This document shows, one piece after another, positions 6,775 through 45,464 of a stretch of DNA of 64,000 bases; positions within the stretch are counted from its first letter, which is position 1; each line of letters opens with the position of its first letter. The stretch lies in the sequence record OR670491; one strand, given 5' to 3'. This DNA is from Escherichia phage vB_EcoM_JNE01. The position numbers and the translations under genes are program-made. The notes beneath the pieces are model-generated. The model was not told the origin of the DNA. It made no database searches and saw only the letters and a list, made by a program, of their open reading frames with translations.

Positions 6775-7077
6775 ATGGAAGACAACGGAATGAAATTTGA
6801 CATGTTTGAAGGTGTACCAGAGTACGATTTCACTCGAATTGAAGAAGGTGAACAATCTGAAGTAGTTAGTGTTACACTAAAAGCTGATTCCAAAAAGAAA
6901 CCAGCAGAGCGTCGTGCTCGTTCTCAAGAAGAATATGAAACCTTCATCGAGAGCGTACACTATGAAACGTTCTATACTAAAGATGGTGCACCATATGAAG
7001 TTCGCGTTACAGTACTGAAGCCTGAAGTGAATCCACTTGAGAACCTTAAACCAGTTTACTGTTGGGCTAGTCATTAA
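6775..7077 (+). CDS. hypothetical protein (100 aa)
   Basis: ORF preceded by AAAGGAA; terminator downstream. Confidence 0.5.
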   Translation: MEDNGMKFDMFEGVPEYDFTRIEEGEQSEVVSVTLKADSKKKPAERRARSQEEYETFIESVHYETFYTKDGAPYEVRVTVLKPEVNPLENLKPVYCWASH

Positions 7078-7086
7078 TAGTCAAGA

Positions 7087-7114
7087 GGCTGGGAGATAAT
7101 CCTGGCCTTTTTTA
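7087..7114 (+). terminator. rho-independent terminator (wobble-containing stem)
   Basis: GGCTGGGA...TCCTGGCC hairpin then TTTTTTATT. Confidence 0.45.
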
Positions 7115-7128
7115 TTCAGAGGATTTAA

Positions 7129-8082
7129 ATGAAATTATACCTAATTCCATGTTATGATATTGAAGATTACAATTACGCGGAAGATAGCGAAGGTGGTAAT
7201 CACGCTTCCGATATGAATGTATTCAGCGTAAGTACTCATAAGCATGAACGTTATACTAACTTTAGTACATTTCTTCAATATAATACTTTTGAAAATTTGA
7301 CATTTCGCCAGCGTTACAATGCTTACGAATACCAACTAATTGATATTTCAGATGATCTAACTTTTCAATTCATGCTATTAGGTCTAAAGGATTTCGATTT
7401 CATTGCGTATAATCATAAAACTAAGAAGATCTATGTAGGTAATAATTCATATCGTATTGCAGGATTAGCATCTGATCCTAGTGAAGAAGAACCAGATCAA
7501 GCTAATGCTTCAAGTTCGACTTCATTAGCGGGTCGTCGTCGTGCACAATCAAAACATAATTCTTCGTATGGTGGTCGTAGTAATAGACCATCACAGCGTA
7601 TGTTTACGTTCAATTCACCACAAGAAGAACCAGTACCATACGATGAAGAAGATCAAGAAGAAGTTCAGATTCGTATTGACAGTACTAATGGATACGATGA
7701 AATTAAAAAAGAATTAATGGTTTACATGGAAGATATCTACTACAAGATGTTCACTAAAACTGCCATCCATTTACGTAGTTCAGGTAGACATATCATCGGT
7801 GAACAGTCTAATAGTCTGTTTAGTGATGATGGATATTCGTCTGTGTATGACCCAAATGCAGTGCGTAACGCAAATCCAGTAGGTTACAAACGTACTAATT
7901 CCTCTTATGATGAAGCACTACAATTGACCACTGAAGAGTTTGGTTTTTTGTTTGAATCATACTTGAACGATGATGAATTGTGGATTAATACACAAAAGAA
8001 AATCCATCATAGACACAAAGAATGCATTCGTGCTTATACTTGTGATGCATGGAAAAAGTTCACAGAATGTGAGACAAAATAA
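7129..8082 (+). CDS. hypothetical protein (317 aa), acidic/Ser-rich central region
   Basis: Long ORF. Confidence 0.55.
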   Translation: MKLYLIPCYDIEDYNYAEDSEGGNHASDMNVFSVSTHKHERYTNFSTFLQYNTFENLTFRQRYNAYEYQLIDISDDLTFQFMLLGLKDFDFIAYNHKTKKIYVGNNSYRIAGLASDPSEEEPDQANASSSTSLAGRRRAQSKHNSSYGGRSNRPSQRMFTFNSPQEEPVPYDEEDQEEVQIRIDSTNGYDEIKKELMVYMEDIYYKMFTKTAIHLRSSGRHIIGEQSNSLFSDDGYSSVYDPNAVRNANPVGYKRTNSSYDEALQLTTEEFGFLFESYLNDDELWINTQKKIHHRHKECIRAYTCDAWKKFTECETK

Positions 8083-8102
8083 AAATTAGTGATATAATTT
8101 AA

Positions 8103-8134
8103 GGTGATAGCAGAGTTGTTATCACCTTTTTTTT
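8103..8134 (+). terminator. rho-independent terminator
   Basis: GGTGATA...TATCACC stem followed by 8 T. Confidence 0.7.
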
Positions 8135-8757
8135 AATCCTGAAAGGTTCCATAAGGAAATGATTAAGACCTAATCCACTCGAAAAGTAGAGGGTAGTTGA
8201 GTAGTCCTTTCAGTACGAACAGCAGAAGAAACCCGTTAGATGTTGGCATAGTTTGAACCACTCACGGCAATGCGGCTGTATAAAGAACTCCGATAAGCAC
8301 ACAGAGAGTTCCTAGATAGACATATAAGGATCGCACCTTACGAGATTTGCTAAGGGAGATTTCACTTTGAAACGCGGTCGTAATTTATACAATATAGTTG
8401 CGTCCAAAATTTGTGAAATCAAATACAAGTACTGTTCATATGGTATTTGTATTATGTGTCGGGATGTTTAAGACCGACGACCGTTGCTACAAGAACCGCA
8501 ATAGAGAGAAACAGAGCAACCCGCTTTCGCCCCAGTACTGGGAATTTGTGATATGAATATGTGAAGACCATCAGCGTCAAACTTTTTGTTCTTTCCCCTG
8601 CGGGGGGATGAAATATGTTCAAACAAATCCCGTCAATATTAATTAAACTACTAATAAAGCTGAATTAGACATGCGAAGCGTGTATAATTCTACCGATTTT
8701 TATTGAGTGCTAACGAAATAAAAGTCGTGTACATTCATTGATGTTTCCATAGGAATA
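8135..8757. other. ORF-free, GC-elevated region; candidate structured ncRNA or origin/regulatory region
   Basis: No ORF >=60 aa on either strand across ~620 bp in an otherwise gap-free genome; several local hairpins incl. palindrome CCCAGTACTGGG (8531-8542). Confidence 0.35.
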
Positions 8758-9300
8758 ATGATGTCTTCAAGAAAATCAAGTGTAAGTATTGTGTATAAGT
8801 CAAGTAATTTTTTGGATTGTAATGAACCTCAAGACTTTGAGAGTTTTAGTGGTTTTCAAATTATCAGAGAACGAGGTAAGCTCTCTTATATCAGAGAACT
8901 ACAAGACGGAATTGAGATTACATCTATTAAATTCAGACCTACACAAATACCCACAATCCTCAAAGCACAATATGGTAATTACTTCGAAGAGAGATACAAC
9001 GGGAACACTATTAGTTCTAAGTGTCACTTAATCAACGGAGATTTAGAAGGAGAGTACAGAAAGTATAGCCCCGATGGAACGTGCATTGGCGTTAAATATT
9101 TCTGTTCAGGAGTCGATGTAACCCAGGAGATCATTGACTTTTTGAAATTAAATTGCACAGTACTGACAATACATGAGTATAAGTTCACGGAAGAAGAAGA
9201 GTTTGTACTTATGGTCAGATACGGTTCACATTTTAAGTTTTACTATGAATATAACATTGACAGTAGTACTTTTGATAATATAGTACTTAACTGTCTATAA
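8758..9300 (+). CDS. hypothetical protein (180 aa)
   Basis: Long ORF after non-coding region. Confidence 0.55.
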   Translation: MMSSRKSSVSIVYKSSNFLDCNEPQDFESFSGFQIIRERGKLSYIRELQDGIEITSIKFRPTQIPTILKAQYGNYFEERYNGNTISSKCHLINGDLEGEYRKYSPDGTCIGVKYFCSGVDVTQEIIDFLKLNCTVLTIHEYKFTEEEEFVLMVRYGSHFKFYYEYNIDSSTFDNIVLNCL

Positions 9301-9316
9301 TCAAAGGATTGATAAA

Positions 9317-9844
9317 ATGAGTGAAAAGGATTCTACTCAAACAAATAAACATTCAGTACACTTCAGTACTGGAAAGGATAACTGGACTACACCGAAGGAA
9401 TTATTTGAAGATTTGGATGAAATCTGGGGATTTACATTAGATGCTGCTTGTGTTAAAGAAACAGCACTATGTGAGAAGTACTTCACACCAGAAGATGATG
9501 CACTTTCACAGGATTGGGGTAAGAATATTTGCTGGCTCAACCCACCCTATAGTGATTTGAAAACTTGGTTATCTAAGGCGGTGGATGCATACAATAATGG
9601 TGCAACAGTAATGATACTAGTACCTTCAAGAACTGATACTATTGCATTTCAACAGTACGCAGCTAAGGTATGTGATTGTGTATGTTTCATTAAAGGTAGA
9701 TTGCGTTTTGGTATTCCTGAAGAACCTGAAAAGAAAACTGATTCAGCCCCCTTCCCTAGTTGCTTGATAGTACTGGATAAGTACTTGACTCCCGCTAAAC
9801 TAAATTATCTTAAATCTCTTGGATTGGTGATGAAGAACGTATGA
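9317..9844 (+). CDS. dam: DNA N6-adenine methyltransferase (phage Dam-like)
   Basis: Motifs FTLDAAC...WLNPPYS (NPPY catalytic motif) typical of phage Dam-family MTases. Confidence 0.7.
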   Translation: MSEKDSTQTNKHSVHFSTGKDNWTTPKELFEDLDEIWGFTLDAACVKETALCEKYFTPEDDALSQDWGKNICWLNPPYSDLKTWLSKAVDAYNNGATVMILVPSRTDTIAFQQYAAKVCDCVCFIKGRLRFGIPEEPEKKTDSAPFPSCLIVLDKYLTPAKLNYLKSLGLVMKNV

Positions 9845-10380
9845 AAGAAGCTTGTGTAGTAACATTCGGGAGAGTTAACCCGATACATAAAGGACATGGA
9901 TTAGTGTTTGAAAAGGCACAATCCCTACAAGAACAGTACGATGCGGACTTAAAGATCTTCCTAAGTACCAGTACTGATAATGTTAAAAACCCCTTACCAC
10001 CTGAATTGAAAATGTATTACACAGAGGGATTCTATCCTAATGTGCAAGAAAACATTTGCATTGAGGACAATTTATTTGATATAATGAGAGAGTTAGATGG
10101 GAAGTACATGGATGTGTTGTTCATCTGTGGCTCTGACAGGATTAACTCTTTCCAAAAAACTCTTGACAGCTACAATGGTAAGCTGTATAATTTCTGTAAT
10201 ATTAAGGCAATCCAAGCAGGTATTGACCGTAATGTTAGTAAGTACAGTTCAACACAAATGCGTTCCTTTGCTAAGAATGATGACTTCGAAAGCTTCAGTT
10301 CATTTTTACCAGGGAATGATATCGACTTAAAACAAAAACTCTTTGAAGATGTAGTAAAATACATGAGGAAAGAATTATGA
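9841..10380 (+). CDS. nucleotidyltransferase, NMN/NaMN adenylyltransferase-like
   Basis: GRVNPIHKGH (HxGH-type) and C-terminal SSTQMR (SxTxxR-like) motifs. Confidence 0.5.
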   Translation: MKEACVVTFGRVNPIHKGHGLVFEKAQSLQEQYDADLKIFLSTSTDNVKNPLPPELKMYYTEGFYPNVQENICIEDNLFDIMRELDGKYMDVLFICGSDRINSFQKTLDSYNGKLYNFCNIKAIQAGIDRNVSKYSSTQMRSFAKNDDFESFSSFLPGNDIDLKQKLFEDVVKYMRKEL

Positions 10381-21887: not shown

Positions 21888-22124
21888 ATGATGACATTTT
21901 TTGGAATTTATGGTTTCGTTGCTATATGTTCATTTGTATGCAACTTTATAGTACTAAATTGGGGTTGTTTCAAAGATGAACTAATCACCATAATTAGTCT
22001 ACAATCCGCAGCACTTATGGCTATTATATGGCCTGTAACATTGGTATATCTTCTTATCTCATTGGTGCGAGATGTAAAAGATAAGTACGTTAAGAACTCT
22101 AAAAAAGGTGAGAAACATGACTAA
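21888..22124 (+). CDS. small membrane protein (78 aa, 2 TM)
   Basis: Hydrophobic segments; GGAGTGGAGG upstream. Confidence 0.5.
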   Translation: MMTFFGIYGFVAICSFVCNFIVLNWGCFKDELITIISLQSAALMAIIWPVTLVYLLISLVRDVKDKYVKNSKKGEKHD

Positions 22125-22374
22125 TGTAGATAAATCTCATATTCGTTATTTGTTTTCTTTAGTTGATGATTTCTTACAAGATATCAAGCCCAAGTACATT
22201 GGGAAAGAAGTCCGTTTGACACATACCAGAGGTTACTATAAACATATCATTGAAGATGTTATTCTTCGTAAGGGTGAGTTGTGCTTTAAAGTTTGCAATT
22301 ACCTTGAAGATGGTACGTATGCTGGTTCTCAAATGGTACATGATGATAAGATTATTTGGATGAATATTGAATGA
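22117..22374 (+). CDS. hypothetical protein, paralog family B
   Basis: ...DDFLQDIKPKYIGKEVR...; ATG 22117 after AAGGTGAG. Confidence 0.5.
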   Translation: MTNVDKSHIRYLFSLVDDFLQDIKPKYIGKEVRLTHTRGYYKHIIEDVILRKGELCFKVCNYLEDGTYAGSQMVHDDKIIWMNIE

Positions 22375-23114
22375 AACATTTTTTAGAAGTAACTGTTCCA
22401 GATGATAAAGAACTATATATTGTAGGCGACATTCATGGTAATGCTAAACTATGGGATATAACTAAAACAGAATTTGGCATTACTTCTGATGATTATGTTT
22501 TTAGCTTAGGTGATCTAATAGACCGAGGAACTCAAAGTGCTAAGTTACTTTTTGAGTTCCTTTTTTCTGATAACCGTTTTATGATTCTCGGCAATCATGA
22601 ACAGCTATGTGTTGATTCAGAAAAGTACAGAGACTGGCATCACTGTTGGTTATCGAATGGTGGAGATAAGTTCATCGAGGAAATCGGTGATACTGGTATT
22701 CAGTTCTTTAGACAGTACTTAAATCAGTTGCCTACAATCATCCAAATCAATCACAGAGGTCTGAAGATTGGACTCGTTCATGCTGGTGTTGATCTGAAGT
22801 ATCAAAACTGGGATCAGTTTATTTCTGGAACAAAGTCGCTTAGTACTGATATAATTGAGTCATTGCTATGGGAACGTAAGACATTTGATTTCTGCAAAGG
22901 AAACAATGTATACAATGCACCACGCATTCAGGGTGTTGACTACGTTCTTAGTGGTCATACTGGTGTGGTTGACCCATTGATTTATGGCAATCGCGTATGG
23001 ATAGACAGTCAATTCATGAGTGGTGATTTAACCGTTGCCACCCCACAAAGTGGCAAGATGCGTTACTTGCGTCGAGAAAAGGACGATTATTCTTTTAATC
23101 GTTTTAAAAGGTAA
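22371..23114 (+). CDS. Ser/Thr protein phosphatase (PPP family, lambda-PPase/ApaH-like)
   Basis: Motifs GDIHG, GDLIDRG, GNHE. Confidence 0.75.
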   Translation: MKHFLEVTVPDDKELYIVGDIHGNAKLWDITKTEFGITSDDYVFSLGDLIDRGTQSAKLLFEFLFSDNRFMILGNHEQLCVDSEKYRDWHHCWLSNGGDKFIEEIGDTGIQFFRQYLNQLPTIIQINHRGLKIGLVHAGVDLKYQNWDQFISGTKSLSTDIIESLLWERKTFDFCKGNNVYNAPRIQGVDYVLSGHTGVVDPLIYGNRVWIDSQFMSGDLTVATPQSGKMRYLRREKDDYSFNRFKR

Positions 23115-31795: not shown

Positions 31796-31817
31796 GGAGC
31801 CATAAGGCTCCTTTTTT
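31796..31817 (+). terminator. rho-independent terminator
   Basis: GGAGCC-ATAA-GGCTCC then TTTTTT. Confidence 0.75.
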
Positions 31818-31939
31818 GTTATTTAAAAACTATGAATGTAAATGTTAATAGAATGGTCTATTTGTGAAAAATTGGTACATTAGAAGTACTGTAATGTAGT
31901 TATATCTCACCCTGTTCGTTAAGAGATAATAAATTTAGT

Positions 31940-31968
31940 TTGACTTAAGGGAAACTTCCATGTATCAT
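31940..31968 (+). promoter_or_regulatory. sigma70-like promoter (TTGACT-17-TATCAT)
   Basis: Hexamers with 17-nt spacer seen in sequence. Confidence 0.45.
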
Positions 31969-32022
31969 TACTTCATCGTCTTAGAAACACATGGCGATTG
32001 ATGCACAAGTGAACTATAAGTG

Positions 32023-32051
32023 TTGACTTATGGCAAATCTAGTGATACAAT
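32023..32051 (+). promoter_or_regulatory. sigma70-like promoter (TTGACT-17-TACAAT)
   Basis: Hexamers with 17-nt spacer; ~45 nt upstream of ATG 32093. Confidence 0.5.
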
Positions 32052-45021: not shown

Positions 45022-45200
45022 TGGAAATCTTTAAAAAAGATTATGATGGGGAAAGTCTTTATGATATGCAGCGTGACGTACACGAAGCGTTTGATTCAAG
45101 ATTTAACCCATTAGCCGACCAGATTCCACAAGATGAATTTGGTTTTCAAGAAGGTACATTCACAGTAACTATTACCTGGACACCGGATGAGAATAATTAA
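45021..45200 (+). CDS. small acidic protein (59 aa)
   Basis: TAATG overlap start; not in ORF track. Confidence 0.35.
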   Translation: MEIFKKDYDGESLYDMQRDVHEAFDSRFNPLADQIPQDEFGFQEGTFTVTITWTPDENN

Positions 45201-45303
45201 ACTTTTGATTGGCTTATTAGCAATGATATTGTTTTTTATATGTTCCGCTCCAATTAATACTATGGTGTTGATTTGGGCAGTTGTAATTTTAGCAGTACTT
45301 TAA
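45187..45303 (+). CDS. small hydrophobic peptide (38 aa)
   Basis: MRIIKLLIGLLAMILFFICSAP...; terminator follows. Confidence 0.3.
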   Translation: MRIIKLLIGLLAMILFFICSAPINTMVLIWAVVILAVL

Positions 45304-45304
45304 A

Positions 45305-45327
45305 AGCACCCTAGTGGTGCTTTTTTC
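45305..45327 (+). terminator. rho-independent terminator
   Basis: AGCACC-CTAGT-GGTGCT then TTTTTT. Confidence 0.7.
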
Positions 45328-45464
45328 ATTTGTACAAATAAAAACCTATCTACCCTTTCATTGATTCAGGTCAAAAGAAACATAGCGTTCTGGAGCTATA
45401 ATGTTGTCTTGTGGAGTTAAATAACTTCACCCCAGATGAATTATAGAATACAAGGAAGAATTAA

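Follow-up and report, generated by a model that had tools for sequence, protein, structure and literature searches.

A probable new family of large structured RNAs in RaK2-like jumbo phages of enterobacteria

Introduction

In a 64,000-nt stretch of the genome of Escherichia phage vB_EcoM_JNE01 (sequence record OR670491; this whole stretch is called the window hereafter), positions 8083-8757 form the longest segment (675 nt) without an open reading frame (ORF) of at least 60 amino acids on either strand, bounded by the stop codon (8080-8082) of the gene at 7129-8082 and by the start of the gene at 8758. What does this gap hold? A preliminary description had favoured a large structured non-coding RNA for positions 8135-8757, with a replication origin and a decayed gene remnant as further options. 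Here, comparison with related phages leads us to conclude that 8083-8757 is very probably a stand-alone gene for a structured RNA, which belongs to a new family in RaK2-like jumbo phages of enterobacteria. As far as available sources show, this family is undescribed in searchable databases, genome records and papers. Beyond what had been seen before, the element is a member of a multi-copy family, has its own promoter just before the hairpin described as a terminator, contains pseudoknots and is the best-conserved DNA of its neighbourhood.

Results

The gap is conserved across jumbo phages and occurs in several copies per genome

In a megablast search with positions 7000-10000, the window was 97% identical to Escherichia phage Turkey5 and ~80% identical to 121Q, PBECO4, G17, phAPEC6 and other Asteriusvirus jumbo phages (~350 kb). 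The gene upstream of the gap had no megablast match, and the 3-kb match to other Asteriusvirus genomes starts at the end of this gene. A sensitive search with 8083-8757 as the query found 87% identity over all 675 nt in ~30 Asteriusvirus records, compared to ~80% for the downstream genes in Asteriusvirus. Identity of ~70% over 8161-8656 was found in the Cronobacter phage GAP32, the Pectobacterium phage CBB, the Serratia phage BF and the Yersinia phages fHe-Yen9-03/04, and likewise in the Salmonella phages Munch/7t3, in Erwinia and Xanthomonas phages and in the Klebsiella phage fENko-Kae01. With a diverged paralogue as the query, the search reached ten Klebsiella phages, among them RaK2, where the syntenic gap, bounded by ORF445 and ORF446-dam, holds a full-length diverged copy (profile E values of 1e-36 and 7e-16).

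Four to five matching places per record were found in 61-70 records. Four copies were located in the whole genome of 121Q, each on the plus strand and each in a gap without ORFs: at 192,755-193,422 the orthologue of the window copy, at 90,331-90,783 a copy after a sigma-factor gene, a third at 247,512-248,054 and a fourth, c4, between two minus-strand genes (326,676-327,001). In the window, a single copy was detected at 8065-8742 (profile hidden Markov model (HMM), E = 1e-134), and blastn, single-sequence nhmmer and a 20-sequence profile found no further copy there. Pattern scans of IMG/VR and JGI metagenomes added 73 loci, and a profile search over the collected loci gave 74 matches, which were reduced to 53 distinct full-length copies (alignments A1 and A2) by removing duplicates. 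A scan of 185,579 bacterial and archaeal species, each represented by one genome, did not find the core motif of the family, indicating that the element belongs neither to hosts nor to prophages. Locus searches with the 121Q sigma factor and with the protein encoded downstream of the gap in the window returned only 121Q itself.

None of 60-70 GenBank records carries an RNA annotation at these loci. The gap is present in Turkey5, G17, 121Q and SHEFM2K, where it is either unannotated or covered by inconsistent small ORFs. Coding sequences (CDS) annotated over the RNA loci include g516 of 121Q (247,799-247,954, minus strand), g416 of 121Q with an extended start at 193,357, and M2K_0050-0053 of SHEFM2K. 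As these small CDS vary from record to record, most of them being on the opposite strand, they are probably spurious. Elsewhere in 121Q (NC_025447.1), ~2 kb at 135,194-137,161, located after tandem paralogous ORFs of ~60 amino acids, has no annotated feature; the RNA-family query had no match in this segment.

The copies are also regularly placed. Yen9-04, BF and GAP32 each carry five co-oriented copies, at ~24-35, 93-99, 174-177, 259-261 and 335-341 kb of ~355 kb, so that the relative positions in five-copy genomes are ~7-10%, 26-28%, 49%, 73% and 94-95%; in Yen9-04, the copies lie at 24.5, 93.2, 174.2, 260.3 and 334.7 kb of 354.4 kb. The spacing is near-regular (~65-85 kb), with four copies instead of five in 121Q and its relatives. 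By our own arithmetic, (1-4d/L)^5, an evenness such as that in Yen9-04, with all internal gaps that large, is expected in ~6 of 10,000 cases for five random points, a figure that amounts to effectively one observation since the genomes are syntenic.

Compensatory changes preserve a fold on the plus strand

Helices were obtained from a column-pair scan, mutual information and RNAalifold, which converged, and were then counted on the 53-copy alignment. In the 79 pairs of 17 helices, 96.6% of the 4028 cells were standard pairs, compared to 38-46% when the 3' partner was slid by 1-3 columns. Both sides had changed in 55 of the 79 pairs, the number of double-change cells was 681 against 55-95 in the slid-partner controls, and no shuffle out of 500 reached any of the observed measures. 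Eight helices (Hb, Hc, Hd, He, Hm, Hn, Ho and Hp) were 99-100% paired and a ninth, Hk, was 97.6% paired. The pairs with the highest mutual information fall on the proposed helices, the top one being 8142/8210. With helix X (see below) counted as well, these data show that variation among copies preserves 18 helices with ~90 base pairs, four pseudoknots among them.

The strand was set by 300 G.U cells, which would be A-C mismatches on the other strand: of all cells, 96.7% were paired when read as plus and 89.3% when read as minus. This indicates selection on a single-stranded transcript of the plus strand, in agreement with the direction of the predicted promoter (see below). Thus, the alignment with related phages, a check that the preliminary description had suggested, came out in favour of its leading reading, since compensatory base changes are abundant and keep the fold.

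We also considered whether the gap might not encode an RNA at all, being either a decayed or unusual coding region or a DNA-level element such as a protein-binding array or a recombination site. No ORF of 60 amino acids or more is present on either strand of 8083-8757, as had been stated for 8135-8757. The longest internal ORF is, however, not one of 42 codons at 8441-8569: ORFs of 56 amino acids (8452-8622, minus strand) and 52 amino acids (8398-8556, TTG start) are longer, and the ATG ORF at 8441 is nested in the latter and ends at 8556 instead of 8569. Among the copies, variability was 0.241, 0.256 and 0.240 by codon phase, without three-base periodicity; indel lengths modulo 3 numbered 61, 417 and 178, most of them shifting the frame; and every frame of each of the 53 copies is interrupted by stop codons, leaving only short stop-free stretches. 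No intact ORF was found at this site in the relatives, and the idea of a decayed gene remnant was rejected. The small ORFs annotated over the element in 121Q (g516 and g416) and SHEFM2K (four CDS) would speak for coding, but they vary by record and lie on the opposite strand. Two repeats in the 3' flank, m1 and m2 (see below), evolve with the same letters, as would be expected of the core sites of a site-specific recombinase, but this concerns the 3' flank only, whereas the covariation keeps Watson-Crick and G.U pairs on the plus strand. Taken together, an explanation that does without an RNA appears extremely improbable.

Architecture of the RNA body

The conserved RNA body, as delimited by the profile HMM, alignments A1 and A2 and covariation, spans 8137-8582 (~445 nt) on the plus strand, on which all features described below are located. 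It begins with helix X, an 8-bp pairing of 8139-8146 (CUGAAAGG) with 8206-8213 (CCUUUCAG) that is outside the 17-helix count; 88% of its cells are paired, compared to 21-50% after sliding, and 7 of its 8 pairs changed on both sides. Helix X contains the hairpins Pa (8147-8158) and Pb (8170-8196, loop GAAAAGUA) and is crossed by Hb (8201-8203/8214-8216), giving pseudoknot 1. Hb is 100% paired, with its middle pair being UA in 24 copies, AU in 16 and CG in 13.

Core 1 (8219-8340) consists of five helices. Hc (8219-8223/8275-8279), Hd (8233-8236/8264-8267, with a variable hairpin inserted) and He (8270-8272/8321-8323), the last of which crosses Hc to form pseudoknot 2, are all 100% paired with compensatory changes. 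They are joined by the hairpins Hf (8285-8290/8306-8311), in which 6 of 6 pairs changed on both sides, and Hg (8325-8328/8337-8340). The joining strands AGAAGAAAC, AUAAAG and GAUAGA of core 1 are invariant, as is UGAG, a further joining strand; across the fold as a whole, purine-rich joining strands are shown by the alignment to be invariant.

The layout of core 1 raises the possibility of a degenerate or free-standing group I-like ribozyme, for example the relic of a mobile intron. The strand order Hc 5', insert, He 5', Hc 3', Hf, He 3', Hg corresponds to P3, P4-P6, P7, P3', P8, P7' and P9 of group I introns, and GAUAGA before the 3' strand of He resembles J8/7. Furthermore, many HNH and GIY-YIG endonucleases are encoded in these phages. 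However, the insert at the P4-P6 position is dispensable, ranging from ~25 to ~70 nt and being cut down to a CCG-UUCG-CGG hairpin in the four copies L014, L020, L051 and L081; He has just 3 bp, and topology alone is not specific. The Rfam model Intron_gpI gave no match even at E <= 10. No gene is interrupted by the element: in the window (8080-8134) and likewise in 121Q, G17, Turkey5 and RaK2, it is preceded by a stop codon, a promoter and a terminator and followed by a separate gene, and the synteny of the loci across genera argues that it has not been recently mobile. A group I origin is therefore highly unlikely.

Downstream of core 1, the invariant AAGGGAG (8352-8358) stands directly before Hh (8358-8360/8418-8420; GAUUUCAC/GUGAAAUC in the window), in which 3 of 3 pairs changed on both sides. 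In the window copy, Hh encloses the module UACAAUAUAGUUGCGUCCAAAAUUU (within 8358-8420). The same 25-nt module (UACAAUAUAGAUCCGUCCAAAAUUU) is found inside Hh in some paralogues, including the window copy (8385-8412), and inside Hp in others (columns 395-420 versus 565-595 of A1); a GATC site and a UGUACA palindrome are part of it in most copies. This module is a swapped peripheral element, and the swapping of peripheral elements is a behaviour of large RNAs with a tertiary fold.

The 3' half of the body contains a 13-bp hairpin, Hi/Hj (8422-8434/8441-8453; 11 of 13 pairs changed on both sides), the loop of which (8435-8440) pairs with 8552-8557 as Hk (5 of 6 pairs changed on both sides) and thereby forms pseudoknot 3. 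It is followed by the hairpin Hl (8457-8479), which is 97% paired, with 2 of its 3 counted pairs changed on both sides, and by core 2 (8483-8550), with the invariant strands GACCGU and ACCCGC. In core 2, Hm (8483-8487/8516-8520, GUUGC/GCAAC) crosses both Hn (8497-8501/8546-8550) and Ho (8504-8508/8524-8528) to form pseudoknot 4. Pairing is 100% in Hm, Hn and Ho, which have two-sided changes in 3, 4 and 4 pairs, respectively, and the hairpin Hp (8531-8533/8540-8542) is 99% paired.

The local stems listed in the preliminary description are all present, and three of them recur as helices in the conserved fold. Hl corresponds to GTCGG/CCGAC (8459-8479) and Hp to the palindrome CCCAGTACTGGG (8531-8542). 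GTTGC/GCAAC at 8483-8520 is a real pairing as well, but it is one strand pair of a pseudoknot and not a simple stem-loop. The fourth, CCCCTGCGGGG at 8595-8607, located 3' of the body, is conserved too.

Predicted promoter and transcript ends, and the 3' flank

A promoter of the RNA was predicted at 8071-8098 on the plus strand, with a -35-like GAGACA (8071-8076), a TG (8090-8091) and a TATAAT -10 box (8093-8098). It scored 10/12 in the promoter scan, with TG present, and begins within the last part of the upstream ORF, whose stop codon is at 8080-8082. Nearly all 53 copies have TGAAAC, TGGAAC or TGGGAC, followed after ~15 nt by TGnTATAAT. This arrangement in the family copies, including that at 8071-8098, is the same as the 'divergent RpoD-like' promoter class of CBB and GAP32, which combines a TGAAACG -35 with a classic -10 (PMC5259590). 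The published description covers promoters of protein-coding ORFs and does not mention RNA genes; in the CBB paper, this non-canonical -35 class is linked to DNA-synthesis genes (PMC5259590).

The -10 box is located 2 nt before a 12-bp hairpin with a T8 run (8101-8134, plus strand), which ends the gene at 7129-8082 and was recovered by the terminator scan, consistent with the terminator described there earlier. The hairpin is kept despite sequence change in the orthologues from 121Q, Yen9-04, GAP32, CBB and metagenomic phages, and the layout of -10 box and hairpin is conserved in the orthologues of this copy from several genera. The RNA would start at ~8105, inside the 5' arm of this hairpin, and a shortened hairpin would then be its 5' leader.

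At the other end, an AT-rich hairpin with a T-run follows the body in most copies and represents an intrinsic terminator with a covarying stem. No 3' terminator is present in ~40% of the copies, among them the window copy, its orthologues and several other paralogues; 3' of the body, the window copy has only a T-run at 8583-8587. Judging from these signals, the transcript would be ~480-540 nt long and run rightward from its own promoter. Its end in the window would be at least at ~8582, and the RNA probably continues through the GC hairpin and m2 to ~8640 or beyond.

The segment m1 (CCAUCAGCGUCAAAC, 8568-8582) makes up the 3' end of the body and in most copies forms the 3' arm and loop of a small hairpin, which is followed by the AT-rich terminator. 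All copies have a GC hairpin, CCCCUGCGGGGGG, at 8595-8607 (8590-8612 with the flanks UUC/GAA), followed by AUGAAA. Its G-run is invariant and the hairpin (helix 17) is 96% paired, but its changes are one-sided, C to U only with G.U kept, and so give no compensatory support. A direct repeat of the m1 core, m2 (CAAAUCCCGUCAAUA), follows at 8624-8638. The DNA past m2 is AT-rich and leads, in most copies, to a conserved AAAATTCTTTGACA region, which is probably the next promoter (TTGACA-type).

In all 52 copies that have both, m1 and m2 vary together with the same letters and not as complements. In alignment A2, columns 632/724 are UU in 41 copies and CC in 11 without exception, columns 636/727 are CC in 48 and UU in 4, and columns 641/732 are GG in 37, AA in 11 and GA in 4; even the window copy and its 121Q orthologue differ in this concerted way. 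The two repeats might pair in turn with the same arm, be targeted by a single guide or nuclease, or serve a recombinase as core sites. When a complementary partner of both repeats was sought, only the near-invariant GAUGAG (8196-8201) turned up; its pairing with CUCGUC shows no compensatory change and was not supported. A mini-ORF starting from the AUG after the G-run was rejected as well, because the spacer to m2 varies by 1-2 nt and the frame is lost.

The signals around the fold bear on two further explanations, the first of which is a cis-acting leader, such as a very large riboswitch or attenuator or an antitermination RNA like put of HK022, that decides on read-through into the downstream unit. 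The order of promoter, fold, intrinsic terminator and same-strand genes in most copies would fit such a role, as would the location of the copies at transcription-unit boundaries in the orientation of most genes. The window copy, which has no terminator, could run into the gene at 8758, and m1 and m2, which share their core, could compete for the 5' arm of the small 3' hairpin in the mutually exclusive manner on which attenuators rely. This alternate pairing, however, shows no compensatory change, and the terminator is missing from ~40% of the copies, including that in the window. Moreover, most copies are followed by a conserved TTGACA-type promoter region that precedes the next genes, which suggests that these genes do not depend on read-through. 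Copy c4 of 121Q faces two minus-strand genes, and the downstream genes vary by locus with no common function that a ligand would report. Known antitermination RNAs measure 65-120 nt. We consider a leader improbable.

The second explanation is that the loci are RNA-primed origins of replication, at which the structured transcript, driven by a middle-type promoter, would form a persistent R-loop at the G-run, m2 and the AT-rich stretch and be cut by RNase H into a leading-strand primer, in the manner of ColE1 RNA II or T4 oriF/oriG. The distance of ~500 nt from promoter to G-run resembles that in ColE1 RNA II, and the invariant G-run, m1/m2 and the AT-rich stretch are located just downstream of the fold. 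In addition, 121Q encodes an RNase H and a 5'-3' exonuclease, the genome carries its four or five co-oriented copies at even intervals, and the promoter is of the -35 class tied to DNA-synthesis genes (PMC5259590). Against this, four covarying pseudoknots, invariant strands and a swapped module exceed what any known primer RNA needs, and most copies have an intrinsic terminator after the fold, ahead of the site where the hybrid would form. No inflection marks the four loci in the cumulative GC skew of 121Q, which only follows gene orientation; for a phage, this counts as weak evidence. Within one genome, the loci carry different repeat variants, unlike iterons that are read by a single initiator. 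An origin is unlikely, although, like the leader, it stays alive as a rival explanation.

The RNA matches no known family

The covariance-model search of Rfam, likewise suggested by the preliminary description, yielded no known family over the element. None of the 4227 covariance models of Rfam 15, which include RNase P, tmRNA, 6S, SRP, group I and II introns, GOLLD, ROOL, OLE, HEARO, raiA and riboswitches, matched the window at gathering thresholds. In E-value mode (E <= 10), positions 8000-8850 gave three chance-level matches, none of them over the fold, and the search of 15 diverse copies found nothing over the element. ARAGORN detected no tRNA or tmRNA gene in the window.

Two candidates suggested by short motifs were rejected. 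The motifs GAUGAGNAGUUC, CAGAAGAAACCCG, AAGGGAG and GACCGUUGC...AGAGAGAAAC...ACCCGC resemble RNase P RNA, but they occur in a wrong order that cannot be reached by permutation; CCGU pairs locally with ACGG (Hd), the P4 arrangement is missing and there is no covariance-model match. The hammerhead-like CAGAUGAG plus GAAA was dismissed because GAAAA is located in a hairpin loop and not in a junction, and U4 is replaced.

The papers searched on structured RNAs of jumbo phages, on phAPEC6 and on GOLLD and ROOL yielded no description of the family. In the main text of a 2023 catalogue of viral structured RNAs, the motifs average ~67 nt (PMC10690425).

Other ORF-free stretches in the window

The statement that spacers elsewhere are under 150 bp is approximate, as further stretches without a 60-amino-acid ORF measure 443 nt (45022-45464), 226 nt (31804-32029), 189 nt and 173 nt. 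The second-longest such stretch in the window, 45022-45464, is located upstream of nrdD and was judged ordinary. It contains an ORF of 59 amino acids (45022-45201), a small ORF and a terminator-like hairpin at ~45300-45326, and the relatives JP4 and SD-2_S15 have ~630 extra bases at this site.

Discussion

If 8083-8757 is an RNA gene, what might its product do? We hypothesize that the RNA would act as a folded RNA itself, as the catalytic or scaffolding core of a ribonucleoprotein (RNP) or of an RNA-only assembly, and that the several gene copies would supply the dose needed in infection. RNase P, group I introns, GOLLD and ROOL work, or are thought to work, in this mode. We give about even chances to such a trans-acting mechanism, be it a ribozyme or an RNP scaffold, and base this guess on the conservation of tertiary structure, which is otherwise seen only in such RNAs. 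To our knowledge, RNA classes so large and intricate are very few, and nearly all that are understood are ribozymes or cores of major machines. A more far-reaching scheme, to which we attach somewhat less than even odds, would treat the element either as a new RNA machine (a ribozyme or RNP core) or as an RNA-dependent genome landmark, namely an origin primed by a structured RNA or an RNA gene switchable by recombination, at five evenly spaced, co-oriented loci. In this scheme, m1 and m2 would serve a second step, either processing by the active site of the RNA itself or site-specific excision of the terminator cassette.

Several points limit the case for a stand-alone, trans-acting RNA. One and the same alignment served to derive the fold and to count its pairs, the sequences are related, and the shuffle control ignores this relatedness; the slid-partner control is the fairer one, and its values are still far below those observed. 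Folding of the single sequence is unremarkable (z = -1.75 for the plus strand and -0.47 for the minus strand), so that the case rests on the comparative data and not on local stems. The GC content, which had been described as elevated, is indeed raised, but only mildly (39.2% in 8135-8757 and 41% in the RNA body, with a window mean of 35.9%), and ~12% of segments of the same size are equally GC-rich. With respect to transcription, the terminator-like hairpin right after the promoter in the window might abort the element's own transcripts, and the window copy, which has no 3' terminator, might be transcribed together with the gene that follows. For the RNA itself, start, end, abundance and stability are deduced from sequence. 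Finally, the concerted evolution of m1 and m2 is not explained by the fold, and the regular spacing and shared orientation of the copies hint at a position-dependent role in cis and not at a purely trans-acting RNA.

That several diverged copies are conserved throughout the RaK2-like clade, at genome positions that are fixed and evenly spaced, implies a step in the life of jumbo phages that is important and has so far gone unrecognised. Because E. coli phages such as 121Q, G17, phAPEC6 and PBECO4 have easily grown hosts, the RNA is open to direct experiment. In addition, more than 60 GenBank records are blank or carry spurious small ORFs at these loci, which a covariance model built from the alignment would correct.

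Among known systems, the ColE1 RNA II and the T4 origins oriF and oriG share with the family a non-coding transcript from a dedicated promoter, which is of the middle type in T4. A defined fold within a length of ~500 nt is shared with ColE1 and the presence of several loci per genome with T4, and a G-run followed by AT-rich DNA downstream of the RNA is a further common point. Different from both, the family has a far more elaborate structure that is conserved across genera, and a terminator before the putative hybrid site. The likeness to the group I core comprises a P3/P7-like pseudoknot with a P8-like hairpin between and a P9-like one after, purine-rich joins and moving peripheral elements. 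The family differs from group I introns in having no conserved P4-P6, exons, splice-site pairings or covariance-model match, in its P7-like helix of 3 bp and in a second pseudoknotted core (8483-8550) without a group I counterpart. The dispensable domain at the P4-P6 position and the lack of exons and of a covariance-model match are our reasons for not filing the family as group I.

Large non-coding RNAs have been found by RNA-seq in the distantly related jumbo phage PA5oct, in which ncRNA001-004 are ORF-free plus-strand transcripts of 236-619 nt and the 451-nt ncRNA002 accounts for 1-5% of phage reads (PMC7318152). These abundant long non-coding RNAs (lncRNAs) indicate that such phages do make large non-coding RNAs; different from the family described here, no structure or copy family has been reported for them (PMC7318152). 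In the PA5oct record (MK797984.1), lncRNAs are located at 8,263-8,498 and 21,951-22,401, and ncRNA002 has a GC-rich 5' end and a terminator-like hairpin at its end. A search of PA5oct positions 7.5-23.5 kb, which cover ncRNA001 and ncRNA002, with the family profile (nhmmer --max) gave only noise (E > 2) and no motif, and homology to these two RNAs was rejected for want of profile similarity and of a shared motif.

The closest parallels in kind are GOLLD and ROOL, large ornate RNAs that are often borne by phages or prophages and have been studied by cryo-electron microscopy (PMC12286853). Like them, the family comprises stand-alone, phage-borne genes of several hundred nt with many covarying helices plus pseudoknots and no assigned function. 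Different from them, it shows no sequence or covariance-model similarity to either, occurs in lytic jumbo myoviruses of Enterobacterales as four to five diverged paralogues at syntenic, evenly spaced loci, and is not tied to tRNA clusters, the window being without a tRNA. What is new here is thus the family and its fold, whereas the category of large ornate phage RNAs already has GOLLD and ROOL as members.

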